IMG/VR virus record: IMGVR_UViG_3300042199_000240
Span: 1 to 30,182 of that record
DNA length: 30,182 bases
DNA from: a virus
Taxonomy: Duplodnaviria > Caudoviricetes
Strand: one strand, 5' to 3'
The translations under genes and the position numbers were made by a program. The notes below the pieces were generated by a model that was given only the letters and a program-made list of their open reading frames with translations, was not told where the DNA came from and ran no database searches. This document shows, piece after piece, positions 552 to 30,182 of the stretch (within the stretch, counting starts at the first letter, position 1; each line of letters opens with the position of its first letter).

Positions 552-1604
552 ATGGAAAATCTAAAAGAGCGTTATGCTTCAATCACGCCAAATCAAACTC
601 CGACAATGTGGGAGATGATTATAGATGTAGCGTCACAGGGTCTAAATGAAGGTGCTTCACTTTCACTAAACTCAAAGGTTGCGCCACAAGGTCGCTATGT
701 TGAAAGAGCAGTTGGGTCAGAGCGTGCGCCACGCAAATCCAAAATGGAAGGATTGTTGAAAGTGGAAGGACTAGCAGGTGACGAAACTTATGTTCGTCCA
801 AATGGTTCTATCTATCACGCTCGTATGTGGGGAGAACATAAAGATGTTGAAACTCTCCGCAAAGCGAGAGAAGCAACTAAGCAATCAGTTCTTACAGGTG
901 TGGGTTCGGCTATGTTCCCACTTCTTTATGGTGTGCCGGGGTGCGGTAAAACTGCGCTAGTTGAAGCGTCTTTCGGTGCTGATGTTGAAACCCTTATGGG
1001 TAATGGAGATGTTGAAGCGTCTGACCTTCTTGGTTCTTATGTCCAAACTCCAAGTGGAAACTTTGAGTGGATTGACGGAGGACTTATTCGTGCTATGGAA
1101 CAAGGTAAAGTTTATTTCATAGATGAGATTGGTCTGATTGACCCAAAGGTTCTAGCACTTGTTTATGGTGCTATGGACGGACGCCGAGAAGTTGTTGTTA
1201 CTACAAATCCCGAACGAGGTGTTGTCAAATCACACCCGAACTTCTTTGTAGTTGGTGCGACAAATCCAAATGCTCCCGGAGTTCGTCTTTCGGAAGCGTT
1301 GATTTCTCGTTTCACACTTCAAGCAGAAATGACTACTGATTGGGCTTTGGCTCGTAAGTTAGGTGTTCCTGCTTTGCTCGTCACCGCTTCTCAAAATCTT
1401 TATCGCAAGCAAATGGCTAAGGAAGGAATTTCTTGGTCGCCACAAATGCGTGAGTTGCTTGCTTTCAGAGACATAGCAACAACTTTCGGAACTTCGTTCG
1501 CTTTACAAAACTTGATTGCGAGCGCACCTGAAAGTGATAGACCTGATGTTGCTGATGTTCTTTCAAGAGCCTTCGGTGAGGAAATCAAACCTGCCAAAAT
1601 CTAA
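552..1604 (+). CDS. MoxR/CobS-CbbQ-like AAA+ ATPase
   Basis: Walker A GVPGCGKT, Walker B YFIDE, sensor-1 ATNP, LSEALISRF arginine-finger region; adjacent VWA gene. Confidence 0.9.
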   Translation: MENLKERYASITPNQTPTMWEMIIDVASQGLNEGASLSLNSKVAPQGRYVERAVGSERAPRKSKMEGLLKVEGLAGDETYVRPNGSIYHARMWGEHKDVETLRKAREATKQSVLTGVGSAMFPLLYGVPGCGKTALVEASFGADVETLMGNGDVEASDLLGSYVQTPSGNFEWIDGGLIRAMEQGKVYFIDEIGLIDPKVLALVYGAMDGRREVVVTTNPERGVVKSHPNFFVVGATNPNAPGVRLSEALISRFTLQAEMTTDWALARKLGVPALLVTASQNLYRKQMAKEGISWSPQMRELLAFRDIATTFGTSFALQNLIASAPESDRPDVADVLSRAFGEEIKPAKI

Positions 1605-1672
1605 ACCTGTCTCTTAGGTTTTGGCTTCTAGGGGGTGGGTCGCAGTTCTTGGGTGTCCTGCGACCTACTTCC
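1593..1672 (+). ncRNA. two-hairpin 3' RNA element after the ATPase gene
   Basis: Stems 1593-1604/1614-1625 (loop ACCTGTCTC) and 1631-1645/1658-1672; mismatches are G-U pairs only on the + strand; no U-tract. Confidence 0.55.
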
Positions 1673-1678
1673 ACCCAC

Positions 1679-1706
1679 TTGACAAATGACAGAAAAACGC
1701 TAGACT
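1679..1706 (+). promoter_or_regulatory. sigma70-type promoter
   Basis: TTGACA-N16-TAGACT; leader hairpin TTATCAGG/CCTGATAA; SD AAAAGGGG. Confidence 0.7.
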
Positions 1707-1751
1707 TGGATTATCAGGTTGGAAGCCTGATAACTAGAAAAGGGGAAATAA

Positions 1752-3530
1752 ATGGCTCACTTACGATTTAGTGGCACAAAGACAGGGGCTACTCCTAAAG
1801 AGTGGCTCAAAGTAGGACGAGACATAGGTTACTTGGCAAACAAGTGGTCTATTCGCAACGACCTTGTTGCGTATGTTGGTCCGGGTGCTGGTGGTCCGGC
1901 ACCTGCTTGTTATTCGCCCACAGAGGCAGAGATTGAAGTAAATGTTGAAGTTGCTTTCGGTGCTGGTGTTACTCCCGAAAAGATTGGCGACATAACACTT
2001 CGCAAAACACAATACGAGTTTCCAAAAGCCACAGGTGCGATTATGCACGAAGCGTTCCACGCTCGCTTCTCACAATGGTCTATGCCGAAAGCGTTTGAGG
2101 ATTTAGCAAGAGATGAATACGAAGCCCTAATGTTGTTAGAGGAAAGTCGTATTGAGTATCAGGGTTTGAGGTCAATGCCTAATGCTCGTCCTTTCCTACG
2201 CTCTTGCGCTATGGACATAGTTCTTGGCGATACAAAGAAAGACGCAGAAACAACAACACAAACACACTCGCTAACTAACTTAGTTGGTTTAGTGTTCGCT
2301 CGTATTGACGCAGGTATCTTAGATGAATACGAAGTTGAACCTATTACTTCACAAATTGTTCGTGAGTTAGGTGTTGATGTTGTTGAGCAACTTCGTCAGA
2401 TTGCTCGCTCTGCTCAATTACACGATAAGCACAATGACGCAACTGACTTGTATCCACTAGCAAAAGAGTGGGCAAGAATTGTTCGTGAGTTAGCAAAAGA
2501 GCGTGGAGATGATAAGCCACAGAAACCTGAGGGTGGTATTCCTTCTCCTATCATTGAAGCGATTATTGAAACAATGTCTGAGATAGCCCAAGAGATTGAG
2601 GCTAATAACTGCGGAGATTTAGCAGAGCAGGAACAACGAGAGGATTGGAAAGAGCAAGTTCAAGCGAAAGCGTCTGACGCTAAAGAGCAGGCAGAAAATC
2701 GTGAGATTGCTAAACAAATCTTTTCTAAGTCGTCAGGTCCGGGTAGCGCACGAACAAGTAGCAAGTTGCTAGAAAAGCGCAACCCAACTACTGACGAACT
2801 TATCGCAAGCACTCGTATTGGACAATACTTAGACAAAGCAAAGTATCGTGAGCGAGATGAGAAAGAAGTTTCTAGTATCTTGCCACCCGGCAGACTTCGC
2901 ACTAAAGCAATACTCCAAAATCGTGCGTTGCGTTCTAAAGGTGTAATGACACAAGTAGAACCTTTCCGTAAAACAATGCGTAAGCACACAGACGACCCAA
3001 CTCTCAATGTAGGTGTCATGGTCGACATAAGTGGTTCAATGGGTTCTGCTATGAAGCCAATGGCTACAACTGCGTGGGTTATGTCAGAGGCAGTAAATCG
3101 TATTCAGGGAAACTGCGCTATGGTCTATTATGGAAATGATGTGTTCCCAACTCTCAAAGTTGGACAACGACTAAAAGAAGTTCATGTTTATTCCGCAGAG
3201 GACGGAACTGAAAAGTTTGCTAAAGCGTTCTCCGCTTTGGACGGAACTCTCAACTTACTTCATGGACAAGGCGCAAAATTGTTAGTGATTGTTTCGGACG
3301 GACAATACACACATGACGAAACTCGTAAATGTAAGGAAATTGTTGCTAAATGTAAAGAAGCAGGTGTCGCTATTTTGTGGCTTCCTTTTGATAGAGGAAC
3401 TAGCGCAGTAGAACTTGGTGGCGACTACGCCGAAGTTATGTCAGATGTTTCTGACCCACTTAGCGCAGTAGAAGCGATTGGTCGTGCGTGTGAGCGTGTC
3501 CTTACGAAAGTAGGAAAGCGTAATGCGTAA
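1752..3530 (+). CDS. VWA (MIDAS) domain protein with N-terminal HEXXH metallopeptidase-like motif; CobT-like partner of the MoxR ATPase
   Basis: MHEAFH...LLEESRIE at the N-terminus; MIDAS DISGS, GT and VSDG at the C-terminus. Confidence 0.85.
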   Translation: MAHLRFSGTKTGATPKEWLKVGRDIGYLANKWSIRNDLVAYVGPGAGGPAPACYSPTEAEIEVNVEVAFGAGVTPEKIGDITLRKTQYEFPKATGAIMHEAFHARFSQWSMPKAFEDLARDEYEALMLLEESRIEYQGLRSMPNARPFLRSCAMDIVLGDTKKDAETTTQTHSLTNLVGLVFARIDAGILDEYEVEPITSQIVRELGVDVVEQLRQIARSAQLHDKHNDATDLYPLAKEWARIVRELAKERGDDKPQKPEGGIPSPIIEAIIETMSEIAQEIEANNCGDLAEQEQREDWKEQVQAKASDAKEQAENREIAKQIFSKSSGPGSARTSSKLLEKRNPTTDELIASTRIGQYLDKAKYRERDEKEVSSILPPGRLRTKAILQNRALRSKGVMTQVEPFRKTMRKHTDDPTLNVGVMVDISGSMGSAMKPMATTAWVMSEAVNRIQGNCAMVYYGNDVFPTLKVGQRLKEVHVYSAEDGTEKFAKAFSALDGTLNLLHGQGAKLLVIVSDGQYTHDETRKCKEIVAKCKEAGVAILWLPFDRGTSAVELGGDYAEVMSDVSDPLSAVEAIGRACERVLTKVGKRNA

Positions 3531-9625: not shown

Positions 9626-9826
9626 ATGACGAAAAAGAAAAAGAAACCAGCACCCAGAAAACCTGTTCAACCCAAAAAGAAGTTAAAAGTAAAAAAGTGG
9701 TTGATGTGGGGATTTCTATTCGTGCTAGGTTCTGTATTACTAACTGAGAACGCACCCGTGTTTATTGTCTCAACTATCTTTGGTTGGCACTTACACAAGC
9801 GTTATGAAATCCATAAGAAGGTCTGA
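9626..9826 (+). CDS. small membrane protein with basic N-terminus
   Basis: Lys-rich N-terminus followed by two hydrophobic segments. Confidence 0.7.
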   Translation: MTKKKKKPAPRKPVQPKKKLKVKKWLMWGFLFVLGSVLLTENAPVFIVSTIFGWHLHKRYEIHKKV

Positions 9827-9827
9827 T

Positions 9828-9856
9828 TTGACAAAAGACAAAGAAAATGCTAAGAT
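9828..9856 (+). promoter_or_regulatory. sigma70-type promoter
   Basis: TTGACA-N17-TAAGAT with TGn extension. Confidence 0.8.
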
Positions 9857-9884
9857 GTTTTTAGAGATGTTGGAAGGAGGAGAA

Positions 9885-10391
9885 ATGTCAAAGATAATGA
9901 CACCAGCATACGCTCCCGATTATGGTTTGGAGTTAGACAGAGAGTTATGGTCTGAAGTCCTACCCGGCCTATGGCAAGGTGGAACTGACGACTTAGATAC
10001 GATTTGGGAACTTGATAGACCACAGGTTGCGGAGATAACAAAGAAAGAGTTTGACACAGTTATTACCGCCTACGCTTGGGCGAACCCTTGCGACTGGTTG
10101 GTAAAAGAAGTTCGTTTTCCGTTCTATGACGGAAGGATAGAGGACATTGACTTAGTAGAACTTTACCAAGTCGTTCGTATCGCCCATGACGACTGGAAGC
10201 GTGGTAAGAAGGTTCTTATCCGTTGCCAAGCAGGTTGGAATAGGTCAGGGCTTATTACGGCTCTAGTCCTAATGCGTGAAGGTTATACGGCAGATGAAGC
10301 AATAACACTTATTCGCCAAAAGAGAAGCCCACACGCCTTGTGTAATACAGCGTTTGATAAATGGTTGCGTAGCCTTCCTGCCCAAGAATAA
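9885..10391 (+). CDS. dual-specificity/tyrosine protein phosphatase
   Basis: CX5R loop VLIRCQAGWNRSG; FYDG general-acid loop; AITLIRQKR; start moved to ATG 9885 after GGAGG. Confidence 0.9.
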   Translation: MSKIMTPAYAPDYGLELDRELWSEVLPGLWQGGTDDLDTIWELDRPQVAEITKKEFDTVITAYAWANPCDWLVKEVRFPFYDGRIEDIDLVELYQVVRIAHDDWKRGKKVLIRCQAGWNRSGLITALVLMREGYTADEAITLIRQKRSPHALCNTAFDKWLRSLPAQE

Positions 10392-12109: not shown

Positions 12110-12739
12110 ATGCAAAAACCTAGTAGAGCCATCGAAAAATCTATAAGCGTTGTTTTATCTGTTGCGGTAATTTCGATGTTTTCGACCTATGTTCAAGCGT
12201 CTAGCGCAGAAGAACAAAAAGTAAAAAATGAAGTGCAGTTGCAGGAAGAAATCCAGAAAGAGAAAACCTACGAACAACTCGTCGAAGATGAGATTGCTCG
12301 CCACAAGGAAACTATCAAAGCCCTACAACTAGAACGCTTCGCAAATCAAAGAACCCCTTTCACTAACGAAGAACTCGCTCAACTACTTTACGCGGTTGGG
12401 TTTGAGGGCAAAGCCCTGAAGGTTGCTTGGGCAGTTGTGAAGAAGGAAAGTAATGGTCGCCCTTTAGCCTTCAATGGCAATAAAAGAACTGGTGACTCGT
12501 CATACGGCATCTTCCAAATCAACATGATTGGTGGATTAGGCGTAGATAGACGCGAGAAGTATGACCTAAAAACAAATACCGAACTATTCAACCCTGTCGT
12601 CAATGCCGAGATTGCTTTTCACATGAGTAATCAAGGAGAAGATTGGACATCATGGAAGGTTGGTGGAGGCTATAATGGTGTCGACCAAGAACGCTTTCTT
12701 TCTTGGTATTCCAAGTTTCCCGAAGGAGTTGTCCCTTGA
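12110..12739 (+). CDS. secreted lytic transglycosylase (lysozyme-like/SLT fold)
   Basis: N-terminal signal/TM; catalytic KESNG, SYGIFQIN, LFNPVVNAEIA and WTSW motifs. Confidence 0.85.
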   Translation: MQKPSRAIEKSISVVLSVAVISMFSTYVQASSAEEQKVKNEVQLQEEIQKEKTYEQLVEDEIARHKETIKALQLERFANQRTPFTNEELAQLLYAVGFEGKALKVAWAVVKKESNGRPLAFNGNKRTGDSSYGIFQINMIGGLGVDRREKYDLKTNTELFNPVVNAEIAFHMSNQGEDWTSWKVGGGYNGVDQERFLSWYSKFPEGVVP

Positions 12740-13272: not shown

Positions 13273-13947
13273 TTATTTTGTTTTTCTATTGCTCTCTGTT
13301 ATTGAGCGATACGCTGGTGACTTTCCGTGTTCTGTTGTGCGGTAGCCATAGCGAACTAGTCTAAAGGCTATCGCTGAAGTAGTCACGCCTAAAAGTTTTG
13401 CTAAGCGATAAAGAGTGACACCTTGCTCTTTGTGTGCTTGGTTTAGGAGATAAGTGTATTCCTCTGCCTCTGCTCTATAACGCGGTGAGTTTGAGCGAAC
13501 CTGTTGAGCATAAGGTTGTAGTTCCTTTAGCCTTTCCAATAACTCTGGAGTTGGCATAACATAGCGAGAAGTTCCAACCTTTTCTGCGTGGCGTGGAACA
13601 TCTGGTATCAAAAGAGTTGCTGGTGCTGGATTAGGTTTATGACTTGTCATAATCACTCTAATCATCTGTGCGGATAATCCTGACGCCCTTGCTACTGACG
13701 CCTGTGACCAACCTGCTTTGACTAACGCAATAATGTAATCGTTGCGTTGGTCTTTGTCCGCCTTTGTTGCTTTTGTGTCTAAAACTCTAAACAAGTCATA
13801 AACTTGTTGCGGTAGTTCTAGGTTTGATTTCTTTGGTAATCCTGCTCTCTTGTAGAAAGTAGGTCTTTCTTTGGGTAGTGCGTAGCGTGCGTTGTGCGCT
13901 CGCTCTAACTGACCCGGATTTGTTTTGAAGTTTATTGCCGTTGTCAT
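13273..13947 (-). CDS. double helix-turn-helix protein
   Basis: GWSQASVARASGLSAQMIR and GVTLYRLAKLLGVTTSAIAFRL. Confidence 0.8.
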   Translation of the reverse strand: MTTAINFKTNPGQLERAHNARYALPKERPTFYKRAGLPKKSNLELPQQVYDLFRVLDTKATKADKDQRNDYIIALVKAGWSQASVARASGLSAQMIRVIMTSHKPNPAPATLLIPDVPRHAEKVGTSRYVMPTPELLERLKELQPYAQQVRSNSPRYRAEAEEYTYLLNQAHKEQGVTLYRLAKLLGVTTSAIAFRLVRYGYRTTEHGKSPAYRSITESNRKTK

Positions 13948-16645: not shown

Positions 16646-17215
16646 ATGACAACGATTGCGGCTATTCAGGGCGAGAACTGGGCTGTCGTTGGCTATGACT
16701 CACGAGTCACAGAAGATAACTCACGCATTTATACGCTTCCAAAGGACAACGGCAAACTAATTAAGAATGGGCAATACCTTTTAGGTGCTGCTGGAGACTT
16801 GCGTGCTGTAAACCTTATTTCATACGTTTTCAAACCACCAACAATAAATCCGACCTCTTACGGGACAAAACTAGATAAATTTATTACTACTCACTTTATC
16901 CCAGACCTCAAGCGATGCTTTGAGGAGAACTCTTACTCTAAAGATGGCGAACACGATAGCCAACTGTTAGTAATTGTCAATTCAACTATTTATGAGATTG
17001 GTGAGGATTATTCTTGGGCACATGATGAAAGCGGGATATACGCTGTTGGTTCTGGAGCACATTACGCTCTAGGCGCTATGCACTCTGCTTTGGAAAGTAG
17101 AAAGCGAACTTTATCCAGCGCTAAAACAATAGTTCGTCAAGCATTAACAATTGCATCAAAACTGGACCCAAGTACTGGTGGTCCTTTTGTAGTAAACGTT
17201 CAACACTTCAGTTGA
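16646..17215 (+). CDS. Ntn-hydrolase, proteasome-beta/HslV-like peptidase
   Basis: N-terminal (M)TTI nucleophile, DSR, K, GAAGD, AVGSGA.YALGA, DPSTGG. Confidence 0.85.
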   Translation: MTTIAAIQGENWAVVGYDSRVTEDNSRIYTLPKDNGKLIKNGQYLLGAAGDLRAVNLISYVFKPPTINPTSYGTKLDKFITTHFIPDLKRCFEENSYSKDGEHDSQLLVIVNSTIYEIGEDYSWAHDESGIYAVGSGAHYALGAMHSALESRKRTLSSAKTIVRQALTIASKLDPSTGGPFVVNVQHFS

Positions 17216-18779: not shown

Positions 18780-20519
18780 GTGAGCGTATTCAAACGCGAA
18801 GAAACACCTAAAGATGGCGAAGTTACGCCTGTTTCTAAGAAGAAATCTACTTCTCGTAAGTCAAAGTCTTCAAAGACTAATCGCTCTCGTCAAATCGTTT
18901 TAAAACAAAAACCACAGCAAGTCACAGGGCCTGCTTCTATCTTTGTTTCTCCTTCATCAGCAGTATCTCTTCCTTTTTCTGCTCCTAGAACTCTTACAGC
19001 AGCGGCTGTTCAAATAAAAATAAATGACAGGGGAGAATTTGAGCAGTTTAAGCAACGTCGTGCTGCTGGTTCATCTTCATGGCAAGCCGAAGCATGGGAA
19101 TACTACGATGCTATTGGCGAAATCAAATATGCTTTCAATTTAGTTGCTTCTGTTGTTTCAAGAATTCGTATTTATGCAGCATCTGTTGATAATCCGTCTG
19201 AAACACCAACATCTGTTCGCAACTCTTCAATTATTGACCCACGTCTTGGCGCAGCAGCAGAGCGAGCACTTGCTCGTTTAGATTCTGCATACGGTGGACA
19301 AGCAGGACTACTTCGTGATGCTGCTTTAAATCTTTCTGTTGCTGGTGAATGTTATTTAGTACAAGTTCCAGCGAAAAAAGGAAGTGGAATTCCAGAGTCT
19401 TGGGATATTCGCTCTGTAGATGAAGTTATGGCAGATGCTCGTGGTGGTTATAACATTATTGGTCGTCGTGAGCAGAACACTGGTAACAATACTCAAGGTG
19501 TAAACAAACTTGGCAACAATGCTTTTGTTGGTCGTATCTGGCGTTCACATCCTCGTTATTCAGATGAAGCAGATTCTTCGCTTCGTGGATTGTTAGACCT
19601 TTGTGCTGAACTTCTTCTCCTCAACAGAACATTCCGTGCAACTGCACGCTCTCGCCTCAATGCTGGTGCGTTGTATTTGCCTGATGGACTTTCTGTTGCT
19701 GCACAAGGTGACCCAGATTATCCATACGATGAGGCAGATAGTGAACTAAATCCAGCCTTTACTGCTGAAGAGGCAGAAGATGAATTTGAGGACCAACTCA
19801 TTGATGCAATGACAACTCCAATTCGTGATGAAGAGTCAGCATCAGCAGTTGTTCCACTTATCATTCGCGGTCCAGCAGAACTTGGTGACCGCATTAAACA
19901 ATTCAAGTTTGAGCGTTCGTTCGACCCTGCATTGGCTCAACGTGCAGACCGAGTACTAGAACGTATCCTTCAGGGTCTAGATGTTCCAAAGGATGTAGTG
20001 ACAGGTCTTGCTAATGTGAAATACTCGAACGCTCTACAAATTGATGAAGCGCTATACAAGGCTCACATTGAGCCTTTGATGTTGCTGATTGCTGACGCAC
20101 TAACAATTGTTTACTTGCGTCCTTATCTAATCGCACAAGGCTACTCACCATCTGAAGTTGACCGCATTGTTGTTTGGTATGACCCAAGCGCAGTTTCAAC
20201 CCGCAATGACCGTGCTGCTGATGCAGATTCTGGTTATGACCGTGGTGTTATTTCACAAGAAACATGGCGTCGTGCTCACGGCTTCTCTCAATCAGACGCT
20301 CCTACAGCAAATGAAGTTGCAATTCGTATGTTGTATGAGAAGGGCGCAATTACTCCAGAGTTATCAGAGCAAATGCTTGCATCTATTGCTCCAGATTTTA
20401 TGGACAAAGTCCGTCAAACTCAGCAAGAGTCTTCAGTTGCTCCGCTTCCAGAAAGCGTTGAGCAAATTCTAAAAGGCGCTACCGCTGAACCAGCAGTAGA
20501 GGGACAGGAAAATGTCTGA
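18780..20519 (+). CDS. phage portal protein (actinophage cluster-B-like)
   Basis: RTLTAA...WQAEAWEYYDAIGEIKY...SRIRIYA, IWRSHP...ADS and ARSRL..G motifs; size and position. Confidence 0.8.
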   Translation: MSVFKREETPKDGEVTPVSKKKSTSRKSKSSKTNRSRQIVLKQKPQQVTGPASIFVSPSSAVSLPFSAPRTLTAAAVQIKINDRGEFEQFKQRRAAGSSSWQAEAWEYYDAIGEIKYAFNLVASVVSRIRIYAASVDNPSETPTSVRNSSIIDPRLGAAAERALARLDSAYGGQAGLLRDAALNLSVAGECYLVQVPAKKGSGIPESWDIRSVDEVMADARGGYNIIGRREQNTGNNTQGVNKLGNNAFVGRIWRSHPRYSDEADSSLRGLLDLCAELLLLNRTFRATARSRLNAGALYLPDGLSVAAQGDPDYPYDEADSELNPAFTAEEAEDEFEDQLIDAMTTPIRDEESASAVVPLIIRGPAELGDRIKQFKFERSFDPALAQRADRVLERILQGLDVPKDVVTGLANVKYSNALQIDEALYKAHIEPLMLLIADALTIVYLRPYLIAQGYSPSEVDRIVVWYDPSAVSTRNDRAADADSGYDRGVISQETWRRAHGFSQSDAPTANEVAIRMLYEKGAITPELSEQMLASIAPDFMDKVRQTQQESSVAPLPESVEQILKGATAEPAVEGQENV

Positions 20520-21645
20520 AGAGTCTTTTGACATTTTAGTTTCTTCTGATTCTGCTGTAACTGCTGGCAGTGGTCCTTGCTGGGAAGGTTACAAACAAGT
20601 AGGAATGAAAAAAGGTAAAGACGGAAAAATGGTTCCTAATTGTGTTCCTGTTGATGCTTCAGATAATTCAAACTTTGCAGCAAAAGGTAAAAGAACAATC
20701 TCTCAAACTCCTGCTCCAGCAAAAGACAGAATTAAAGGTTCTTCAAAAAATAAAAAGGGCAGTGCCAAAGGAACCAAGGCAGCACGCAAAGTAAACTTCT
20801 CTGCTGCTATAGAAAAATCTTTGAAAGAAAAAGTTGCTAAGCACAATGAGAAGGCTTCTCCAGGTCGCAAGGCTTCATTAGGAATGCTCAAGGCTGTTTA
20901 TCGTCGTGGTGCAGGTGCGTTTTCTGTCTCACATCGTCCTGGAATGACTCGTAATCAATGGGCTATGGGTCGCGTCAATGCTTTTTTACGTTTACTAAAG
21001 TCTGGCAAGCCTTCTAATTCTGCTTACACAACAGATAACGATTTACTTCCAGCATCTCATCCTCGTTCAACAAAGAAATCAAACTCCATCACTGCCGCAG
21101 GTTTAGTTCCAGAAGAACAAGATTTAGCAGCAGCGCTTATTGAAATTGCTACTAAGTATGGAAAATTCAACGAAGATGAAACAGGTATTTGGGCGGGATA
21201 CACACCAGCAGCAGAAAACAAAGATGCTTCTATTGGAGTTATCTGTGGAAACTGCGTTTTGTATCAAGGCGGAGACCAATGCCAAATCATTGCTTTGCCA
21301 GTAGAAGCAAATGGAAAGTGTCGTTTTGCTGTTCTTCCAGAAGGCGCTGTAAAAGTATCTGAGAAGCCAACAATGGAAGAACTAGAAGAGTTTATGTATG
21401 ACCAAGAACTAACAATAGAACTAAAGAATAAAGAAGATTACTTTTATCCAGAAGACGCTATCCTTGCTATGGCAGAGTATTCAGGTTTCGGTTATGAAGC
21501 AGAGCCAGCGATTCGTGCTTCATGGCTTCGTGGTGTAAGAAATGGCGATGACCCGTTTGTTCGCGCTTCGCTTTTAGCATCGTTGGGACATGAAAGTCTT
21601 GATGGAGATTTACTCCCAGTAGTTGAGGAAGGTACTGAAGAGTGA
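20512..21645 (+). CDS. modular head-associated protein (CWxGY...VPNCV, DUF5824-like and HiPIP-like Cys4 modules)
   Basis: PCWEGYKQVGMK..VPNCVP; LKAVYRRGAGA...QWAMGRVNAF; CGNC-x8-C-x12-C. Confidence 0.65.
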   Translation: MSEESFDILVSSDSAVTAGSGPCWEGYKQVGMKKGKDGKMVPNCVPVDASDNSNFAAKGKRTISQTPAPAKDRIKGSSKNKKGSAKGTKAARKVNFSAAIEKSLKEKVAKHNEKASPGRKASLGMLKAVYRRGAGAFSVSHRPGMTRNQWAMGRVNAFLRLLKSGKPSNSAYTTDNDLLPASHPRSTKKSNSITAAGLVPEEQDLAAALIEIATKYGKFNEDETGIWAGYTPAAENKDASIGVICGNCVLYQGGDQCQIIALPVEANGKCRFAVLPEGAVKVSEKPTMEELEEFMYDQELTIELKNKEDYFYPEDAILAMAEYSGFGYEAEPAIRASWLRGVRNGDDPFVRASLLASLGHESLDGDLLPVVEEGTEE

Positions 21646-24600
21646 GCAGAATTCGTCGTATAAGTTACGCCATTTCACAAGATGGTCGTCGTGCTACTTC
21701 ACTAAACCAAGCAAGACGGATTAGAGAGTCTGTACTTTCTCTTGTAGAAGAGGCAAATCTAAACTCAAATCCTTCTCGCCGTATTACTAAGAAGGCTGCT
21801 TTCTCTGTAGTTCTTCGTTCACTTCAAGCAACACGCCATCTTCCATTCTCACTTCGTGAGCATATGGCTCTCAAAGAACTTTCTAACTACATCAACCTTG
21901 CCAAGCACAATAAAACTACTGCTCTTGTTTATAGTCACACTGACTTACTTCCAATCTCACATCCACGCTCTACTCGTGAGCACTCGATGACTGCTTCTGC
22001 TTTGGCAGATGCTCGTGCTCGTTGGATTGTTGATGATGAAAGAATTACTAACGATACTGCTAAAACTATTTTGGCTTCTGCTCTAACAGCAGAGGTAGAT
22101 TCTGTAGAACACGCTTATTACATCTCAGCCTTATCTGCTCTTCCACAAGGAACTATTCCAGCAGATGTATTGATTGCTGCAATTGGAGACGGAAACTCTC
22201 CACTTGCTCGTTCTCTTCGTGCGCAACTACAGCGTCGTGACCGCAAGGGACGATTCGCTTTCCAGGGTGGCGGAGTCAAGGCACTTATTCGTCGTGGCGG
22301 AAAAGTATTCAGTCTTGTTGGTAGAACTCTTATGGATGCTCCAGATGGAAAAGTTCTTATGGAACTTCCAGATGGCCGCATCGCAAAAATTACTCCAGAA
22401 AAAGGCGAGTATATCAAGGCTGTTCTCAATCCAACAAAAGATGGTTTTAGCCCTAAGCCAGTTCGCTTCTCTGCAACTGACGACATTATTGATGAAGCAG
22501 ATTTAGAGTTTGTTGATTCTCCAGAAGGCTGGACAAAAGAAGGAAATTACACCTGGAAAAACGAAAACTGGGTCGTAACTAAAGATGATTTTGGAAACTT
22601 TAGAGCAAGTGATGGCAAGGGCGGAAACGTCGAAGGTAAATCTTGGGCAGATATTCTTGATGGAATTGATGATGTTGATAAGCCTTCTCAAAAAGCCGTT
22701 CTTCCTGAAAAAGAAAAAGCAGAGAAAAAGTCCTTTGAGTTTGATTATCCTGCTGGCGCTTTCAAACTAAAAGTTGGACAAGAGTACGAACCTCAAGGTC
22801 GTCAAGAAGAAGACCAACCAAATGATTTTACAGATGACCCTGTAGAACTTGCTCAAAAATTTGACCCTAGAGATTTAGTTCAAGCACTAGAAGAAGCAGT
22901 TATTCCTCAAGGTGAAAACGAAAACGCTTTCGGGTACGGCAATCTATCTTTTGAAGATGGGGATGGCCTTGTAGAAGCAGACGCTATCTATAACGCTCTT
23001 AAAGAGGCTGGAGAAGATGCGGACCTTGAGTTAGCAAAAATTTATGACAAAGCAAATCAAAACAACAACAACGAACAAGCACTTTTAGATTCTCGTAAGG
23101 GTCCAGAAGTTGTTCGTACTTCGGAGCCAGATGTTGCTGAAGCCTTTGAACGTGTAACTGAAGAAGGAACTTCAGATGTTGCTCCAGCAGCAGAAGAGCC
23201 AGAGTTTGTTGAAGAAAAACGCGACGAGACTCCACTTCCTCCACTTCTTAAAGGTCTAACAGAAAACGAACTTGCTCGTTTTATGGAGAGCAAAGACCAC
23301 ACTCCACATCTACCTAAGAATGAAGATTTGAATGTTCCAGAGGGCTACAACAAATTAGACCCAGCACCATTCAACAATTGGCGTGAAGTAACTCCTGACA
23401 ATCCAGACCCTGTTTTGCCAGAAGGTTTTAGTGATAATCCAGTATTTCTTGCTCAGAATGTTTCTGAAGATGATTTGAAGAAAGAATTACGTCGTGCTGT
23501 CGAGCCAGGAAATGAAGCACCAGGATATGGCGCTATCAAACTCAAGACCGAAGATGGTGAAGACTTCGTAGCAAATGTTCCTGGCGAAGCAATTCGTGAT
23601 GCTCTACAACTTCAAGGCGTAGACACTAACGATGAACTAAACAAGATTTACATGGAAGGACGCACTCCACAAAAGCAAGGCATTACTGATGGCGAGGCTG
23701 GAGACATCCTTGCTCAGATTGAGGCTGATGATGCTGGTGAAGCATTAGCACCTGCTGAAAAGAAAACAATTCGTCCAGAAATACCAGAAGATTTTGAAGT
23801 AAACGCTGTTGAAGAAATTCCAGATGGAATTGCTGAATATCCAAAGCCAGCAGACGTTGCTCCTGCTGCTCCTGGCGGTCCTGGCGGTCCTGGCGGTCCT
23901 GGAGATGGAGATGGAGAAGGAGAAAGTCCTAAAGGTCCTTATCGCATTGTTTCTAAAGTAACTGGTCTACAGCCAGGAGACATTACAGTTGGTGACCATT
24001 TTGTTATTACTGAAATTGGCGAGAAGGTTCCTGGAACTGACCGCGTAAAAATTAAGGGTTACTACCCAGGACACGTTGAACAAGATACAAAGCAATGGAA
24101 CGAATGGCGTGAGATTGAAGTTATTCGTGGTGCAGAGGCACCTGCTCAAGGCGACCTACCTGTTTTATCTAAACCAAAAGAAAAAGATTTTGGAAGACGC
24201 AAAAAAGATGCTGATGGTAACTGGGGCTTTGCTAATCCAGAAGACCAAGCACGTTTTGATGCTGCTATGGCTGAATACAATGTTCAACTTGATGCTGCAA
24301 AAAAACGTTTTGCTGACCCAACAGAACCAAAGAACCAACCACACCGCGCTTTAGTTCGTGCTGCTGATGTAAAGCCTGGCGATATAACTACTGACCCTAA
24401 GAAGGGCCACTTTGTTATTGAGCGAGTATTTACAGATGAAAATACTAAACCAGGATTTGTTAGCGTTGAAGGCTACTACCCAGGACACGTTACACAACGT
24501 AAAGAATGGAAAGTAGATACTCAGATTGATGTTATTCGTAACGTTGAAGCACCTGCAAAAGGAGAACTTCCAGAATTACATCAGCCACACCAAGTTGTTG

Positions 24601-27600
24601 ATGGTAAGTGGCGTCCAGATAAAGACCCGGCAAAGCGTGCAGAGCATCAGAAGATGCTTAACGAGGCTGCTGGTCGCTGGCAAGCACCGCAAGACCTACC
24701 TGTAATTGATTACAAGGCTGGCGCTGCTGAAGATGATAAAGATATTCCTAACGCAGTTGTTGTTGCTCGTCCTACACCTCCCCGCATGATTGAGATGCCA
24801 GCATTCCAAGGAGAGATGGCAAATATTGCTCGTGAAGCAGGTGGAGACTGGAATAAGTTCCGTCAACTAATTGGTGAACGCGATATTGTTTTCTTTGATT
24901 TTGAAACAACAGGTGTTCAATTAGAAGATGGAAACGAACCTTGGCAGGTAGCCGCAGTTCGTATGCGTGGTGGAAAAATTGTTGACCGCATAAATATATT
25001 TATGAATCCAGGTCGTTCCATCAGGGACACATACGCTGGACGTGATACTGATGGTGTTCCAAATGCTGTTGACGCAGATGGAAATAAACTTACAGATGAA
25101 TTTTTAGCGCAGCAACCAAACCAAGAAGAAGCAATGAAACAACTTCTTGAGTGGGCTGGGCCAGATGCAATATTTGGCGCACAGAATATGGCTTTTGATG
25201 AAGAAGTTGCTCGTCGTATGGCAGACCGTTATGGTCTTGATTGGGCTCCAGCAGGTCTTTTAGATGTTCTTCCAATGGCTAAAGACATTTACAAGGACCA
25301 ACCAAAAGAAAACCGTCCTAAGACTCCTAAAGGACGTGAGAGTTATGCTCTAGGTAATCTTGCTAAACATCTTGGTATCGACCTTGATAATTGGCACGCA
25401 GCAGATGCTGACGCGGAAGCAGCAGCAAAGATATTTGATGCTCTTGTTGATAAAGGTATTGAGTTTGACGCTGGTAAAGATTTGTTTGATGTTGATGCTC
25501 GTAATGACGAGTATGTGGCAAAAATGGCAGATTACAACGCTGCTCTGGCTGACTATGATGTAAAACTTGGAGAATATGTTGCTGCTAAGGCACTAAATGA
25601 TGCTCTTGCTGGCAAACCTGTAAATATTGATGATGTTGTAAAGGCTGCCACCCCAAATAAGGCAGAAGGACAAGAAGTTGATGCTGGTCCAGTTGGTCTT
25701 GAGCCCGAGCCTATTCGCGCTAATCCAGAACCAGTAGTTCTTGATTTCACACCTAACGCGGACTTCCCTCGTGGCAAGATGATTATGAAAGACCGCGACT
25801 GGGTTCTCAACGATGACAATACAGTGCTTCTACCTCGTGAAAATATTCGTATGCGTGATTTGCTTCCTGGTGATTTTATGCAGTCAAAAGATGGAAACAC
25901 CATTTGGCAAGTAGTTGCTGTTCGTGGTGGAGAAGAGTTTGGTCTTGCTCCAGGACGTGTAAAAGTTTATCGTCGCAATATTGATAATGGTGAAGTTTCA
26001 ACATACGAACATTTCCATGGAGTATTTCTTGATGGTGTTCGTCGTCCAATCAACCCTCGTGACCTTGATGCTCCAGACACAGTAGTTGAAGGAGAGAAGG
26101 CTCCATTTATTGTCAACAAAGAAGAAAACGTAGAAGCGATTGAAAAAGAGTCAAAGCCAAACGATGTTGTCTACAAAGATGTTAGACCTATTGGTGACTT
26201 TGCTGAAGGCGTTATAAAAATAACTAAAGAAGAAGACGGACGCTACAAAGCATCTGTAACTATCTATGACGAAAACTATCAAAATCAATTCTACTTTAGC
26301 GAAACTTACAGAACTTATGAAGGAGCAAAAGCAGAGGCAGAGGCTGCCTTTGATGAAAGAGCAAAAGAACTCATTGCTGAGCGTCGTCAGGCTGTTCCTG
26401 AACCAGAAGAAGCAAGAGCAAAAGATGTTCCAGTCTCTCGCGGTAGTGTTCCTGGAGATGCGCAAGACGCTCCTCAAATCATAGAGGTAGAGAATCTTCC
26501 TAACAATATTATGGGAGATATTAAGATTGAAAATGTTGGAGACGAGAAGCCAGATTTCAAAGCAGACGCTATTGTAAAAGATGTTGACGGTGATGTAATA
26601 GCGAACCAAACAACAAACCATGAGAGCAAACGTGATGCTGAAAAAGAAGGACGCGATTTCGTCAATCGTGTTGTTGACGCAATTCAAAATCCAGAAAAAC
26701 CAACAGAAGAAAAACCAAAACGTGAACGTGCAAAGAAACCTCTTACAGAAGAGCAAATCAAGGCTGCTGAAGAGCAAGAAGCAAAAGACAAGGACAATGC
26801 TTGGGTAGAAGCCAATGCTGGTCGTCTTGCTCCTATTGAAGCACAAGATGTAAAGGCTGGAGATTTCTTCTGGGAACCATTCTGGGGCAACTATGCAGAA
26901 ATTATTGAAGTTAAGTATGTTGGCGGTCCACTAAATCGTGTCCGTTATAAAGTTCTAAATAGAGTAAATGGACAAACAGAATTACGTTATTTTGAAGCAA
27001 CTTCTCCTCTAAGAAATATGCGTCGTCCTGGAATTGCTGATGAAGAGTTTGAAATTGAAAAACCAAAAGATGGAACAAATAGAGGCGCTAAACGTGGAGA
27101 AATTAAACGTCTTCCTTTAGAAGAAAGAATTGTTGCTAAAGAAGGTCGCCCTATGGGTGGAAAGTTTGAAAAAGAAGGCTTTTATAAAGATGCCAATGGT
27201 TATTCTCTAAAACCTGGTGATGTTGTTATTGACCCTAAGAAACCAGAATTGGGTCGTGGCGTTGTCAAGCGACGCGAAGGTGCACAGGTTGAAGAAGGTA
27301 AAAAAGCGGGTGGTCTAGGTCGAAAAGGAAAGATGTACTTAGACTATGTCGTTGTTCAATGGGAAAATGAGCAACCTAAAGAGTTTAAGTTCCCTGGCGC
27401 TAAACGTAAAGCAAAAAATCTTGTTGCTCTATTTGAGATTGATGAGCCAATTAATCTTCCAGACTTCTTCCAAGGTGGAAAAGCAGTTCCAAATATTATT
27501 CCTGGTGAAAAACTTGCAGACTGGGAGAGAGAACTCTTAGGAGTGCCTGCCCAGGGGGCAGAACCTAAAGGTGCTCCAGAAGCAGAACAAAGAATAGAAG

Positions 27601-29810
27601 TACCACAGCCTGGTAAGGAAGATAAGTGGGCTGTGCCACTTATGGAACCTATCGAGCCAAAAGACAAAGGTAAAGATTTACAAGACCAAATTCAACGTGC
27701 TATTGATGCGAAAGATGATATTTCTTTCAACTACAATGGAAAAACACGCTATGTAAGTCCGTTAGCAATTTGGGTAAACCCTCAGAATGGAAATATAAAT
27801 CTTCGTGCTATTGAAAATGGTGACCTAAAGAACTTTACCATTGGCAAGATGGATTACATAGAAAATCCAGAAGGTGTCGTAAGACCTAAACCTGCTGACA
27901 ATGCAGAACCAATAGATATTAACTTTGAGTTAAATAACGACAACATCAAAGATGGTCTTGAAAAACTTCGTCAAGGAATTAGGGCTCTAAAGAAAAAGAA
28001 GGGTGGGCGAGATACCACTCTAACTAACGCTGAGAGAGCACTTGATAATTTCTTATCTAATCTTGACGTTAGTGATTACAGAAAAATAAATACATCTGAA
28101 TTAGATGCTCTCATACGTCGTCTTGGTAGAACCAATGGAGCAGAAAATCTTGCTCTTGCTGCTGAAAAACTAAGAAACATAGTTCTTCCAGAGAAGCAAC
28201 GTCTTGAGGTTGAATTCAATAAGAATATGTTTGATAATTTAAATAAGCCTTTAGCAGTTTCTGTTGGCGATGTAGATAATATTAATGCTGTAAATGTAAA
28301 AGATGTTGTAAAAGAAATTGTTGACAGACTTCCAGACAATGGAAGAGACGGTGCTGCTTACAGACTAAGTCTTGCTCGCAATTATCTTGAGAGATTTGGT
28401 AGCAACATATCTACCGATGATGATTTGATGATGTCAGAGTTTTCTGACCTAAATGAGGCAATCAATTACTTAGATGGATTGCCAGTTGATGCTACTGCTA
28501 TAAAAAATCAATTAGAAGCACTAAAGAATTCTGTAAAAGCATATGCTAAGAAGAATAAGAAACCTTTTGGCAAAGCAAATATGCCATTTATTGACCCTGT
28601 TGCTCTTCAAGAGAAAAGAGTTGCTGATGGAGTAAATAAATTTGATTTAGCAAAAGCAGATAATCTAAAAGCGCTTATTGCTGATGACCAAGTATTTGCC
28701 AATAACGCTTTCCTTGCTCCATATAAAGATGAACTACAAAAATTCTTTGCTCAAGATGGAGAAGTTCCTCTTGCTGCTCTAAGTCCAGATGCTCGTCAGG
28801 CTCTATCTCAATTAGTAAGCGATGAGGTAAGAAAACCTGGAACTGGAAGCACAGATGCTAAGAAAATTCGTGCTAACGAACTTGCTCGCATGATTATGGG
28901 ACTTCACGAAGAAAAACTTGCTCTTAATCCTAACCGTGATGACTTAGGACCTGCTGGAGAAGAACTCAAGGATATTGATTTCAATGCTGTCTTTAATTTT
29001 GGTCAGAATTTGAATGGTCGTAGAGCAGTTAACCTTGAAATCAATGGTCAACCTACAGGATTCAAAATTCAAGCAGTTGGTGACGGAATCAACGCTTCTT
29101 ATAACTATCGTTTGATTCATAAAGCATCTGGTCAAATTTTCTACTTCAAGCGTGAGCGTAGTTTAGAGTCTGCTGATGCAGAATATGCTTCAAACCAAGT
29201 TGCTCGTGCTTTGAATATTGCTGGCACTCCTGTTGTAGTAAGACACAACAATGATGCAAGAGTTTTGATTATGACAAATGCTGGAGACTCTCTAGACTTT
29301 GAAAAAGACCCAACTATTGCTGGAAATTCTGGTAAAAACTATGACGATGTTGCAGCAAGAGCAGCAATTGCTGATTTAGTTGCTTTTGGTGTTCTCGATG
29401 CTGTTATCGTCAACACAGACCGACACACTCATAACTTCCTTCTTGGAGATTTTGATAGAGGAAATGTAGATGGAAATGGTCGTGAAGAAATTCAAATCCT
29501 TCCTATTGACCACGGATTTGCTCAGTTGTTCCAAAATAAATATAGAGTTAATGACCCTCTTGACTACATGACTGGTGGAGATGGTCGTGATGGCGGAAAA
29601 ATTAACAAGGCTCTTGCTAGAGATATTGGCGCTGCTACTTATAAAGAACTTGTTGATATGACCATACAACAAGCAATCCAAGCAATCGAGCGCGGAGACT
29701 TTTTAGCAGATTTGAAGCCGTCAGATAAACAAGAAATTATAGACAGACTACTTCGTCTAAAGGGAATTGATGTAGACAAGTGGAAATCTAGTTTAGCGAA
29801 GAAACTATAA
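21642..29810 (+). CDS. giant 2722-aa multidomain protein, probably virion-associated: internal repeats, DEDDh exonuclease, WYL-like domain, C-terminal HipA/PI3K-like kinase
   Basis: FFDFETTG/AQNMAFD/HAADAD; IQRAID..ISFNY..RYVSP..NFTIGKM; YFK...NTDRHTHN...IDHG. Confidence 0.8.
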   Translation: MSRIRRISYAISQDGRRATSLNQARRIRESVLSLVEEANLNSNPSRRITKKAAFSVVLRSLQATRHLPFSLREHMALKELSNYINLAKHNKTTALVYSHTDLLPISHPRSTREHSMTASALADARARWIVDDERITNDTAKTILASALTAEVDSVEHAYYISALSALPQGTIPADVLIAAIGDGNSPLARSLRAQLQRRDRKGRFAFQGGGVKALIRRGGKVFSLVGRTLMDAPDGKVLMELPDGRIAKITPEKGEYIKAVLNPTKDGFSPKPVRFSATDDIIDEADLEFVDSPEGWTKEGNYTWKNENWVVTKDDFGNFRASDGKGGNVEGKSWADILDGIDDVDKPSQKAVLPEKEKAEKKSFEFDYPAGAFKLKVGQEYEPQGRQEEDQPNDFTDDPVELAQKFDPRDLVQALEEAVIPQGENENAFGYGNLSFEDGDGLVEADAIYNALKEAGEDADLELAKIYDKANQNNNNEQALLDSRKGPEVVRTSEPDVAEAFERVTEEGTSDVAPAAEEPEFVEEKRDETPLPPLLKGLTENELARFMESKDHTPHLPKNEDLNVPEGYNKLDPAPFNNWREVTPDNPDPVLPEGFSDNPVFLAQNVSEDDLKKELRRAVEPGNEAPGYGAIKLKTEDGEDFVANVPGEAIRDALQLQGVDTNDELNKIYMEGRTPQKQGITDGEAGDILAQIEADDAGEALAPAEKKTIRPEIPEDFEVNAVEEIPDGIAEYPKPADVAPAAPGGPGGPGGPGDGDGEGESPKGPYRIVSKVTGLQPGDITVGDHFVITEIGEKVPGTDRVKIKGYYPGHVEQDTKQWNEWREIEVIRGAEAPAQGDLPVLSKPKEKDFGRRKKDADGNWGFANPEDQARFDAAMAEYNVQLDAAKKRFADPTEPKNQPHRALVRAADVKPGDITTDPKKGHFVIERVFTDENTKPGFVSVEGYYPGHVTQRKEWKVDTQIDVIRNVEAPAKGELPELHQPHQVVDGKWRPDKDPAKRAEHQKMLNEAAGRWQAPQDLPVIDYKAGAAEDDKDIPNAVVVARPTPPRMIEMPAFQGEMANIAREAGGDWNKFRQLIGERDIVFFDFETTGVQLEDGNEPWQVAAVRMRGGKIVDRINIFMNPGRSIRDTYAGRDTDGVPNAVDADGNKLTDEFLAQQPNQEEAMKQLLEWAGPDAIFGAQNMAFDEEVARRMADRYGLDWAPAGLLDVLPMAKDIYKDQPKENRPKTPKGRESYALGNLAKHLGIDLDNWHAADADAEAAAKIFDALVDKGIEFDAGKDLFDVDARNDEYVAKMADYNAALADYDVKLGEYVAAKALNDALAGKPVNIDDVVKAATPNKAEGQEVDAGPVGLEPEPIRANPEPVVLDFTPNADFPRGKMIMKDRDWVLNDDNTVLLPRENIRMRDLLPGDFMQSKDGNTIWQVVAVRGGEEFGLAPGRVKVYRRNIDNGEVSTYEHFHGVFLDGVRRPINPRDLDAPDTVVEGEKAPFIVNKEENVEAIEKESKPNDVVYKDVRPIGDFAEGVIKITKEEDGRYKASVTIYDENYQNQFYFSETYRTYEGAKAEAEAAFDERAKELIAERRQAVPEPEEARAKDVPVSRGSVPGDAQDAPQIIEVENLPNNIMGDIKIENVGDEKPDFKADAIVKDVDGDVIANQTTNHESKRDAEKEGRDFVNRVVDAIQNPEKPTEEKPKRERAKKPLTEEQIKAAEEQEAKDKDNAWVEANAGRLAPIEAQDVKAGDFFWEPFWGNYAEIIEVKYVGGPLNRVRYKVLNRVNGQTELRYFEATSPLRNMRRPGIADEEFEIEKPKDGTNRGAKRGEIKRLPLEERIVAKEGRPMGGKFEKEGFYKDANGYSLKPGDVVIDPKKPELGRGVVKRREGAQVEEGKKAGGLGRKGKMYLDYVVVQWENEQPKEFKFPGAKRKAKNLVALFEIDEPINLPDFFQGGKAVPNIIPGEKLADWERELLGVPAQGAEPKGAPEAEQRIEVPQPGKEDKWAVPLMEPIEPKDKGKDLQDQIQRAIDAKDDISFNYNGKTRYVSPLAIWVNPQNGNINLRAIENGDLKNFTIGKMDYIENPEGVVRPKPADNAEPIDINFELNNDNIKDGLEKLRQGIRALKKKKGGRDTTLTNAERALDNFLSNLDVSDYRKINTSELDALIRRLGRTNGAENLALAAEKLRNIVLPEKQRLEVEFNKNMFDNLNKPLAVSVGDVDNINAVNVKDVVKEIVDRLPDNGRDGAAYRLSLARNYLERFGSNISTDDDLMMSEFSDLNEAINYLDGLPVDATAIKNQLEALKNSVKAYAKKNKKPFGKANMPFIDPVALQEKRVADGVNKFDLAKADNLKALIADDQVFANNAFLAPYKDELQKFFAQDGEVPLAALSPDARQALSQLVSDEVRKPGTGSTDAKKIRANELARMIMGLHEEKLALNPNRDDLGPAGEELKDIDFNAVFNFGQNLNGRRAVNLEINGQPTGFKIQAVGDGINASYNYRLIHKASGQIFYFKRERSLESADAEYASNQVARALNIAGTPVVVRHNNDARVLIMTNAGDSLDFEKDPTIAGNSGKNYDDVAARAAIADLVAFGVLDAVIVNTDRHTHNFLLGDFDRGNVDGNGREEIQILPIDHGFAQLFQNKYRVNDPLDYMTGGDGRDGGKINKALARDIGAATYKELVDMTIQQAIQAIERGDFLADLKPSDKQEIIDRLLRLKGIDVDKWKSSLAKKL
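23871..23924 (+). repeat. in-frame low-complexity repeat (CCTGGCGGT)x3 plus GGAGAT/GGAGAA, a PGG/GD linker
   Basis: Read directly from the sequence. Confidence 0.9.
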
Positions 29811-29822
29811 GGAGAAAATGAC

Positions 29823-30182
29823 ATGGCACTAAATGTATACAGAGTTTATAACGTAGATAATGTTCTCCCAGAAGATGCTGCTCATTTATTTTCTATAGTC
29901 ACCACCGAGAATAGTGCTGCCTATGCTATTCCTAGTAATCCAGACATCACTGATTTTGAAGGTTTTGACGAGAAAAGAATAGAATTCCTTCTTTCTCGTG
30001 AAGAAAATCCTCCAACAACACCAGAAGAGTGGGCACTAGTTGCTTCACAAAATATGTCTATGCTTGATGTAATACCTGTTTCTGATGTTGAATATGAAAC
30101 AGTAGAAGAAGCAATTCTTGAAGAGGGATACCTAGCAGAAGATGCTTGGTATTTTAGAAATCCAGATAGAGCAACTCCTGTT
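29823..30182 (+). CDS. acidic hypothetical protein, truncated by the window end
   Basis: SD AAGGAG; MALNVYRVYN... open to the end of the window. Confidence 0.75.
   Translation, partial: MALNVYRVYNVDNVLPEDAAHLFSIVTTENSAAYAIPSNPDITDFEGFDEKRIEFLLSREENPPTTPEEWALVASQNMSMLDVIPVSDVEYETVEEAILEEGYLAEDAWYFRNPDRATPV

Follow-up and report, generated by a model that had tools for sequence, protein, structure and literature searches.

A giant head-module protein of freshwater actinophages carries an exchangeable C-terminal kinase that travels with a predicted immunity domain

The window, the whole stretch of DNA that was analysed, is a 30-kb linear IMG/VR fragment (IMGVR_UViG_3300042199_000240, 30,182 nucleotides, 23% complete). 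On its plus strand, which also encodes all domains of the giant protein described below, a portal protein (18780..20519; phrog_776, E 9e-109) is followed by head-module gene A, encoding a DUF5824-like protein of 377 aa (20512..21645; Pfam DUF5824, E 1e-8), by a giant polyvalent protein (21642..29810) and by a predicted immunity domain (29823..30182), which is cut by the window end and comprises 120 aa with 25 acidic versus 6 basic residues. The reading frame of the giant has a GTG start and a stop-free translation of 2722 aa, giving a protein of 302 kDa with a pI of 4.9 and no cysteine. An ORF of this length two genes downstream of the portal, with gene A in between, had been described in the original prediction, which was made from the sequence alone; both frame and portal were found, and every motif that it named is present where it had been placed. 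The 3' part of the window occurs in 20 runs among the matches listed, all of them lake or freshwater metagenomes and four of them possible sources of the fragment. Across 20500-30182, contigs of four further public runs (four studies) reach each of the 30 bins and show zero listed differences, indels or joints; no single piece spans the whole stretch, and one public-run contig bridges the WYL segment, the kinase and the start of the downstream gene. An assembly chimera is ruled out by full-length homologues and by the absence of joints in the four runs. No RNA run containing the window sequence was present among the runs listed.

In related contigs the order of genes is portal, gene A, giant, a partner gene of 116-271 aa, a gene of ~100 aa, a head-protease polyprotein of 1,570-1,780 aa, major head, phrog_779 and major tail, and this portal-to-major-head order bears out the head-module location proposed for the giant. 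The same order is found in phage DSL-LC01 (OQ999401). The head-protease polyprotein is a second giant of 1,570-1,840 aa, with two RDxxGxF and several TAA motifs in one example (L044:12009-17201). In WhiB-bearing freshwater actinophages of ~120-130 kb the giant studied here is a constant member of the head module; the presence of WhiB in all five large contigs (103-133 kb) indicates that the host is actinobacterial. None of these five contains a tyrosine integrase (PF00589), and three have partial, weak matches to the PF07508 Recombinase family (model positions 3-49 of 102). The matching frames (G001, G002, G005) have 222-227 aa and are thus near in size to the 224-aa HTH gene of the window (13273-13947). 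DSL-LC01 was predicted to be lysogenic by its authors, according to the accessible text (PMC10611076). In some relatives a Dps/ferritin-like-looking gene (phrog_3636, "DNA binding protein"; L044:3156-3611, L072:5286-5759) lies between portal and gene A. Furthermore, the window encodes a MoxR-type AAA ATPase and a VWA/CoxE-like protein as a pair (552-3530), a dual-specificity phosphatase (9765-10391; Pfam DSPc, E 1e-11) that could reverse or tune phosphorylation, an SLT/lysozyme-like protein with a signal-like N-terminal segment (12110-12739) and, upstream of the portal cluster, an HslV/proteasome-subunit-like peptidase (16646-17215), of which DSL-LC01 has one too.

A search with aa 1-300 of the giant retrieved 219 proteins, and the best 120 of these 219 were analysed. 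All 120 share the N-terminal chassis, which consists of N1, N2 and an unnamed repeat. N1 is a helical leader (21687..22211), found by profile match in each of the 120 and also seen in the structure model, and it carries two candidate prohead-protease sites, MTAS (aa 116-119) and IAA-x-GDGNS (aa 178-186), whose motifs recur in 95 and 85 of the best 120 of 219 homologues, respectively; cleavage at these sites is suggested by sequence. It is followed by the RDxxGxF motif, in the window QRRDRKGRF (22230-22256), and the N2 beta-domain (together 22230..22637), the motif being present in 120 of the best 120 of 219, and by two copies of an alpha/beta repeat (22743..23678; aa 368-481 and 564-679), which was defined by local profiles and the model and has no match in Pfam, PHROGs or the ESM Atlas. 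The model of aa 1-1075 (pLDDT 71.7) comprises the helical leader, a beta-domain after RDxxGxF, the two alpha/beta repeats and two SH3/KOW-like barrels; fold searches with it left N1, N2 and the repeats without a clear match and gave nothing above Z 7.3.

Parts of this chassis are shared with other head proteins. N1 is homologous to the helical domain of gene A (tblastn E 8.5e-9; hhalign probability 89.8), and both end in a TA[AS] motif; RDxxGxF and N2 recur in the head-protease polyprotein of the same phage, just after an "AA" site, as N2 does in the polyproteins of related contigs. The giant and the protease polyprotein have RDxxGxF ~15-30 residues after an AA site, and so do two distant phages. 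Head proteins contain the pattern [LIVM]TA[AS] 13 times in 8494 aa, placed at domain borders, versus once in 3858 aa of other window proteins, an enrichment with p 0.04 for a pattern picked after the fact. Since the giant has its TA[AS] motif in the leader and nowhere else, cleavage would shorten this leader and not separate the enzymes. Moreover, the best 120 of 219 homologues contain 29 cysteines in 329,026 residues compared with 34 in 3,694 residues of non-head genes, a depletion of about 100-fold. We infer that the sharing of N1 and N2, the site motifs and the cysteine depletion are signs of head association, and that RDxxGxF with N2 is a candidate packaging or ejection tag. The original prediction had linked the RDxxGRF-type motif to MuF proteins, a link that found no support, as no MuF profile matched by Pfam or PHROGs: MuF1 and MuF2 (PF04233, PF06152) gave no match in the protein, its fragments or ten N-terminal homologues at E up to 5, nor in PHROGs.

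The chassis is followed by two SH3/KOW-like barrels (23937..24593) that resemble EF-P domain I with a middling score (Z 7.3, rmsd 2.1, 61 aligned) and co-occur with the nuclease in 73 of the best 120 of 219 homologues. The nuclease itself is a DEDDh 3'-5' exonuclease (24888..25436; Pfam RNase_T at aa 1083-1265, E 5e-16), and the intact DEDDh set assigned to it in the original prediction was confirmed by this match and by the full catalytic D-E-D-D-h set, including the motifs NMAFD (25185-25199) and HAADAD (25395-25412). D1086, E1088, H1252 and D1257 are conserved in 74 of 74 aligned domains and D1186 in 73, with one exchange of D to E; a regular-expression count that had suggested degenerate nucleases in 39 of 73 homologues proved to be an artefact, since the alignment shows the catalytic residues to be intact. 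An NCBIfam search returned DEDD matches and nothing further. Five small unnamed modules come next (25752..27449; aa 1371-1478, 1517-1600, 1610-1687, 1721-1805 and 1826-1936, from local profiles), the last two of which are beta-barrels in a model that spans aa 1700 onward. They precede a stand-alone WYL-like barrel (27675..27860), which matches PADLOC WYL models (E 1.1e-5 and 1.2e-4). The Pfam scan of the window protein and its fragments gave no WYL match; a local WYL profile matches, with E 7e-26, the stretch of homologue P0077 that passes the Pfam WYL cut-off. The WYL fold of this segment is thus supported by PADLOC and, transitively, by P0077, while the sensor role once attached to it is not: the barrel is optional, shifts in position and occurs in 0-3 copies, which leaves "sensor" without evidence and argues against a fixed coupling to a linked effector. 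Helical repeats and a helical pre-kinase domain (27990..28952; local profiles and model) already belong to the block that is swapped together with the kinase.

The comparison of domain cargo in related phages, which had been suggested along with the original prediction, revealed shuffled cargo behind the conserved N-terminus. Among the best 120 of 219 homologues the nuclease is present in 73, WYL in 65 and a terminal DRH-type kinase in 85, and 20 contain another internal kinase-like domain by partial profile matches. ArdC-N together with MPTase-PolyVal, the hallmark that speaks for the polyvalent nature proposed for the giant, occurs in 10 of these 120 by precomputed Pfam matches, with 14 homologues rescanned; the same 120 include UvrD helicase in six, NUDIX in three, DUF3626 in two and Sigma70_r4 in two. 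DEDDh, WYL and terminal kinase are combined in only 5 of the best 120 of 219, and therefore the combination seen in the window is one draw from a pool; a fixed circuit of nuclease, sensor and kinase is ruled out by the homologue architectures. The nuclease, SH3 and WYL modules are best described as accessory cargo that a giant can lack; they may serve to bind or trim nucleic acid. A divergent subfamily (P0084, P0086, P0100, P0106 and L069:19986-29855) has NUDIX and a second kinase-like subfamily in the middle of the protein, followed by a different C-terminal domain, DUF3626-like in some, and by its own small downstream gene, which together probably represent another toxin-immunity type.

The C-terminus of the giant is a kinase of the HipA/CotH/PI3K fold (28959..29807), with a G-loop (29079-29105), YFK (29142), DRHxxN (29418-29435) and IDHG (29505-29516). 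Pfam PI3_PI4_kinase matches it weakly and below the cut-off (E 2e-4). In the AlphaFold model of aa 1700-2722 (pLDDT 83.6) the kinase aligns best with CotH (Z 13.3, rmsd 4.2, 252 aligned) and HipA (Z 11.2, rmsd 5.0, 232 aligned), followed by PI4K II (Z 10.1), CtkA (9.7) and HipT (9.6), whereas Foldseek ranks Vps34/PI3K on top by E-value (E 2e-5). K2503, E2514, D2593, R2594, H2595, N2598, D2623 and G2625 are invariant in 61 of 61 rows, and the catalytic D-x-H-x-x-N and the metal-binding D are both kept in all 85 terminal kinases of the best 120 of 219 homologues, so that the HipA/PI3K-like kinase named in the original prediction is well founded in structure match and catalytic residues. A tblastn search with the kinase against 50,697 GenBank phages returned no match. 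Kinases differ even between phages with near-identical chassis. Three loci (L011, L012, L016) are 97-98% identical over their first 295 aa and have kinases that are 28-39% identical; among the matches listed, 86 terminal kinases form 14 types when grouped at 50% identity, and of 303 pairs whose N-termini share at least 85% identity, 147 have kinases below 50%. The sequences suggest a C-terminal warhead that is exchanged along with a partner encoded at 29823, a point that the original prediction had missed.

By a profile built from 23 of the rows concerned, the partner gene comes directly after the kinase in 29 of 33 distinct contigs; the remaining four belong to unrelated phages, in which other small ORFs lie downstream. 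Of the 29 partners, 7 are free-standing and 22 are fused via a TAA motif to a conserved Cys-rich domain. Because of this fusion to a head-type domain the partner may itself be packaged. The Cys-rich domain, usually beside a TAA motif and annotated as "high potential iron-sulfur protein" in DSL-LC01, shifts between the C-terminus of the partner and the N-terminus of gene A (L004:14151-14552, L028:8481-10001, L069:30237-30971). The partner is absent from five of five loci whose giant is without a kinase of the terminal type: it is missing in three loci whose giant ends in ArdC-N and MPTase, and another small gene takes its place in L074 and DSL-LC01. Phages without kinase and partner retain the rest of the head module. 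All five large contigs have a single kinase and a single partner gene, and none of the five contains orphan immunity arrays. The interval before the partner gene has 3 candidate internal promoter sites versus 3.6 expected. A family search collected 39 proteins, which are 63-249 aa long and all devoid of Pfam domains; the partner matched no Pfam, PHROG or PADLOC family, and its matches in the ESM Atlas were confined to unnamed viral clusters, with values of 0.84 or lower. Related head-module kinases also occur in unrelated phages (L060:5882-10684, L065:1688-3292, L066:2128-5030), each followed by an ORF of 70-100 aa, L066 having two such kinase genes in tandem; kinase-plus-small-partner pairs may be widespread.

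Kinase and partner are exchanged between phages as one block. In ~90%-identical phages the DNA homology is lost before the kinase and comes back at about codon 106-128 of the partner. Trees were built for the window and 17 loci with both ends, chosen to limit redundancy, with long branches flagged in both trees; kinase and partner trees contain the same supported groups while the N-terminal tree differs, and the Mantel rho between kinase and partner is 0.86 (p 0.0005) compared with 0.12 and 0.17 against the N-terminus (18 rows), although such congruence of adjacent genes is also expected from linkage alone. What is new, judging from these comparisons, is that the acidic 120-aa domain of the next gene travels with the kinase.

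A complex prediction that paired kinase aa 2308-2722 and the 120-aa domain gave a score of 0.76 (0.76, 0.52 and 0.76 in the single runs; best control 0.00). Of 157 solved complexes 116 attain the mark on this scale, as do 2 of 215 mismatched pairs; user alignments lie outside this calibration, and the score separates neither inhibitor from substrate nor cognate from cousin. The runs share at least 93% of contacts, with a partner pLDDT of at least 83. A search for a solved relative close in sequence found none (best E 0.007). The predicted interface involves the G-loop (2479-2485), K2503, the catalytic loop (2592-2598) and the DHG loop (2622-2628), with N77 of the partner set against D2593, and the partner is thus predicted to plug the active site of the kinase across the ATP and catalytic loops. 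Across 23 rows of the partner, position 77 is N in 20, whereas S75 and S79 are found in 11 and 12 rows, respectively, and no Ser/Thr/Tyr at the predicted interface is conserved. The conservation of N77 and the lack of a conserved Ser/Thr/Tyr favour an inhibitor over a substrate, and a kinase-immunity pairing is very probable.

Since the kinase is swapped together with a neighbour that is predicted to plug its active site, and since both are located among head genes, the giant is likely a capsid-packaged, injected toxin with an antidote. It is best read as a probable virion effector, both polyvalent and polymorphic, that comes with a cognate immunity protein. Packaging and injection, as proposed in the original prediction, would be in keeping with the genomic context. 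The conserved N-terminus would load the giant into the procapsid, where the prohead protease may trim it at the TA[AS]/AA motifs and thereby expose the RDxxGxF segment. The cargo including the HipA/CotH-fold kinase would then be injected with the DNA and disarm or reprogramme the freshwater actinobacterial host; by analogy to T7 kinase and T4 Alt, the kinase may have host defence or expression proteins as early targets, while the late-made acidic domain would plug its active site inside the producing cell. To this whole sequence of a packaged, protease-trimmed and injected effector that is silenced in the producer we assign a probability of roughly 0.5; packaging of the giant as such is fairly probable. 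Several considerations count against it, the possible packaging of the partner itself among them. Ejection must involve the unfolding of a 302-kDa multidomain protein, for which there are precedents of large ejected proteins, e.g., the N4 virion RNA polymerase (cited in the accessible text of Iyer 2017, PMC5512222). As the partner belongs to the late head operon, it would offer no protection from the kinase at the start of an infection, before the late genes are expressed, and an unneutralised toxic kinase could harm the early phase of the phage itself. Finally, Benler et al. considered a HipA-like kinase between portal and capsid genes unlikely to act early, as far as the available text goes (PMC8008677).

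The same packaged pair might serve mainly as a weapon of phage against phage, which is compatible with the preferred reading and to which we give fairly low odds. The kinase would be neutralised in cells of a phage with the same immunity and would poison cells of other types, driving the many kinase types. The 14 types among the matches listed, swapped on near-identical chassis with their cognate partners, speak for it, as do the resemblance to polymorphic toxin systems (as described in the main text of PMC5576092) and the one kind of habitat shared by the homologues, judged from the habitat data of the window phage. However, one partner and one kinase per genome without extra immunity arrays in five of five large contigs is not what this would lead one to expect, the lack of a tyrosine integrase in all five makes standing lysogen immunity doubtful, and co-transfer of kinase and partner is needed under any model.

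It is unlikely that the pair is instead an unpackaged, late intracellular toxin-antitoxin or superinfection-exclusion device in which WYL, SH3 and nuclease sense foreign nucleic acid. Such a role was suggested for the HipA-family kinases that "Gratiaviridae" encode between their portal and capsid genes (by the available text of PMC8008677), the WYL and DEDDh profiles that match come from a defence context, and a kinase with a predicted bound inhibitor recalls TA pairs; but the invariant part of the giant is the N-terminus common to head proteins with its candidate protease sites, WYL and nuclease are dispensable, ArdC-N and MPTase in the cargo of relatives are typical of DNA-accompanying proteins, and the cysteine depletion is extreme. 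The predicted docking of the partner at the catalytic loop and its frequent fusion to a head-type domain would also fit a kinase substrate or head-assembly partner next to a structural or decorating giant whose enzymes modify the virion, which is very unlikely given that the predicted interface has no conserved phosphoacceptor in 23 rows and that the rest of the head module is kept where kinase and partner are missing. Most improbable is an anti-grazer "Trojan horse" whose PI3K/CtkA-like kinase hits protists eating infected cells or virions, an idea suggested by Vps34/PI3K at the top of the Foldseek ranking and proposed for freshwater-phage ADP-ribosyltransferases (in the available part of bioRxiv 670067), because bacterial CotH and HipA score above lipid kinases in full alignment (Z 13.3 and 11.2 versus 10.1 or less), a dedicated predicted active-site plug implies toxicity inside the bacterial host, and the kinase is interchangeable with ArdC-N and MPTase cargo.

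If the reading of a packaged effector with its immunity protein is right, viruses of freshwater Actinobacteria would have a further broad mechanism for early anti-defence or for competition between phages, and a candidate capsid-loading tag for very large cargo would come with it. Near-identical phages that differ only in the cassette make cognate specificity, targets and the purpose of the polymorphism testable with short synthetic domains. Going further, one may speculate, at rather low odds, about a MuF-independent, capsid-delivered polymorphic toxin system in abundant freshwater actinophages that are not necessarily temperate, in which an effector array of 300 kDa would be loaded by way of an RDxxGxF tag that the protease exposes, and at least 14 types of exchangeable HipA-like kinase/immunity cassettes would enable co-occurring phages to tell kin from non-kin and to sabotage rivals in a shared host cell.

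Among known systems, HipA/HipT, CotH and CtkA have the same fold and catalytic residues as the kinase of the giant at 10-16% identity, but the latter is the C-terminal domain of a phage polyprotein with its inhibitor downstream. In HipBA and HipBST modules the HTH antitoxin HipB (and HipS) is encoded upstream. Here, in contrast, the upstream gene is head gene A, and the partner lies downstream and belongs to no Pfam, PHROG or PADLOC family. T7 kinase is an early-expressed kinase. It has nucleic-acid-binding accessory parts and acts against host defences (by the available text of PMC13645617), which is a functional analogy only, as the giant is a head-module protein with an immunity gene. The predicted plug resembles IapK of the MuF-type pair Apk2/IapK, which occludes the active site of its toxin (as the accessible text of PMC12226406 has it). 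A HipA-like kinase between portal and major capsid is also found in the "Gratiaviridae" (Benler 2021, PMC8008677); in the system as its available text describes it, the kinase belongs to Bacteroides gut phages, is linked to an ATPase and a glycosyltransferase, and comes with no giant chassis, polymorphism or immunity partner.

Like the polyvalent proteins (Iyer 2017, PMC5512222, in its accessible text), which are defined as large, with several conflict domains and in a late-gene context, the giant has over 2,000 aa, many domains, a late-gene context and shuffled cargo, and its relatives share ArdC-N, MPTase-PolyVal and helicases with them. The window protein itself is without the hallmark Pfam domains MPTase, ArdC-N, ART and LPDs. 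The kinase family described in the same text lacks the C-terminal subdomain and occurs mainly in phages of Verrucomicrobia-Chlamydia and Bacteroidetes; "DEDD" does not occur in the main text, and the available text names no cognate immunity gene. A published description of the giant's family was not found in the mostly open literature, and the supplements of Iyer 2017 and Zhang 2012 may hold such proteins; the available texts of PMC7824862 and bioRxiv 670067 do not describe it. A named relative is that of Actinomycetia phage DSL-LC01 of the proposed "Nanparkviridae" (OQ999401; 129 kb), which shares WhiB and the chassis (36% identity over aa 9-263). Its "hypothetical" copy of 3,289 aa, which the accessible text of PMC10611076 does not discuss, has neither DEDDh nor a terminal DRH kinase by local profiles, and an unrelated small gene follows it.

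The MuF toxins (Jamet 2017, PMC5576092; Zhang 2012, PMC3482391, both by their accessible text) come close to the giant in their working, with a near-portal gene in the head and packaging module, a constant N-terminus, a variable C-terminal enzyme and a small downstream immunity ORF, the last three being assigned to the giant from sequence and model. They are reported only in temperate phages in the accessible text of PMC5576092; the word "kinase" has no occurrence in the main text of Jamet 2017, nor "HipA" in the accessible text of Zhang 2012. Since no MuF1/MuF2 profile matches, the giant is not classed as MuF, though it would be MuF-like in its working, and it further differs by a length of 2,000-4,600 aa in the family, by its many internal domains, by the kinase warhead and by an immunity domain that is often fused to a head-type domain. 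MuF toxin-immunity pairs are known from temperate phages; the giant's family has a different chassis, a kinase as its warhead and an undescribed family of predicted inhibitors.
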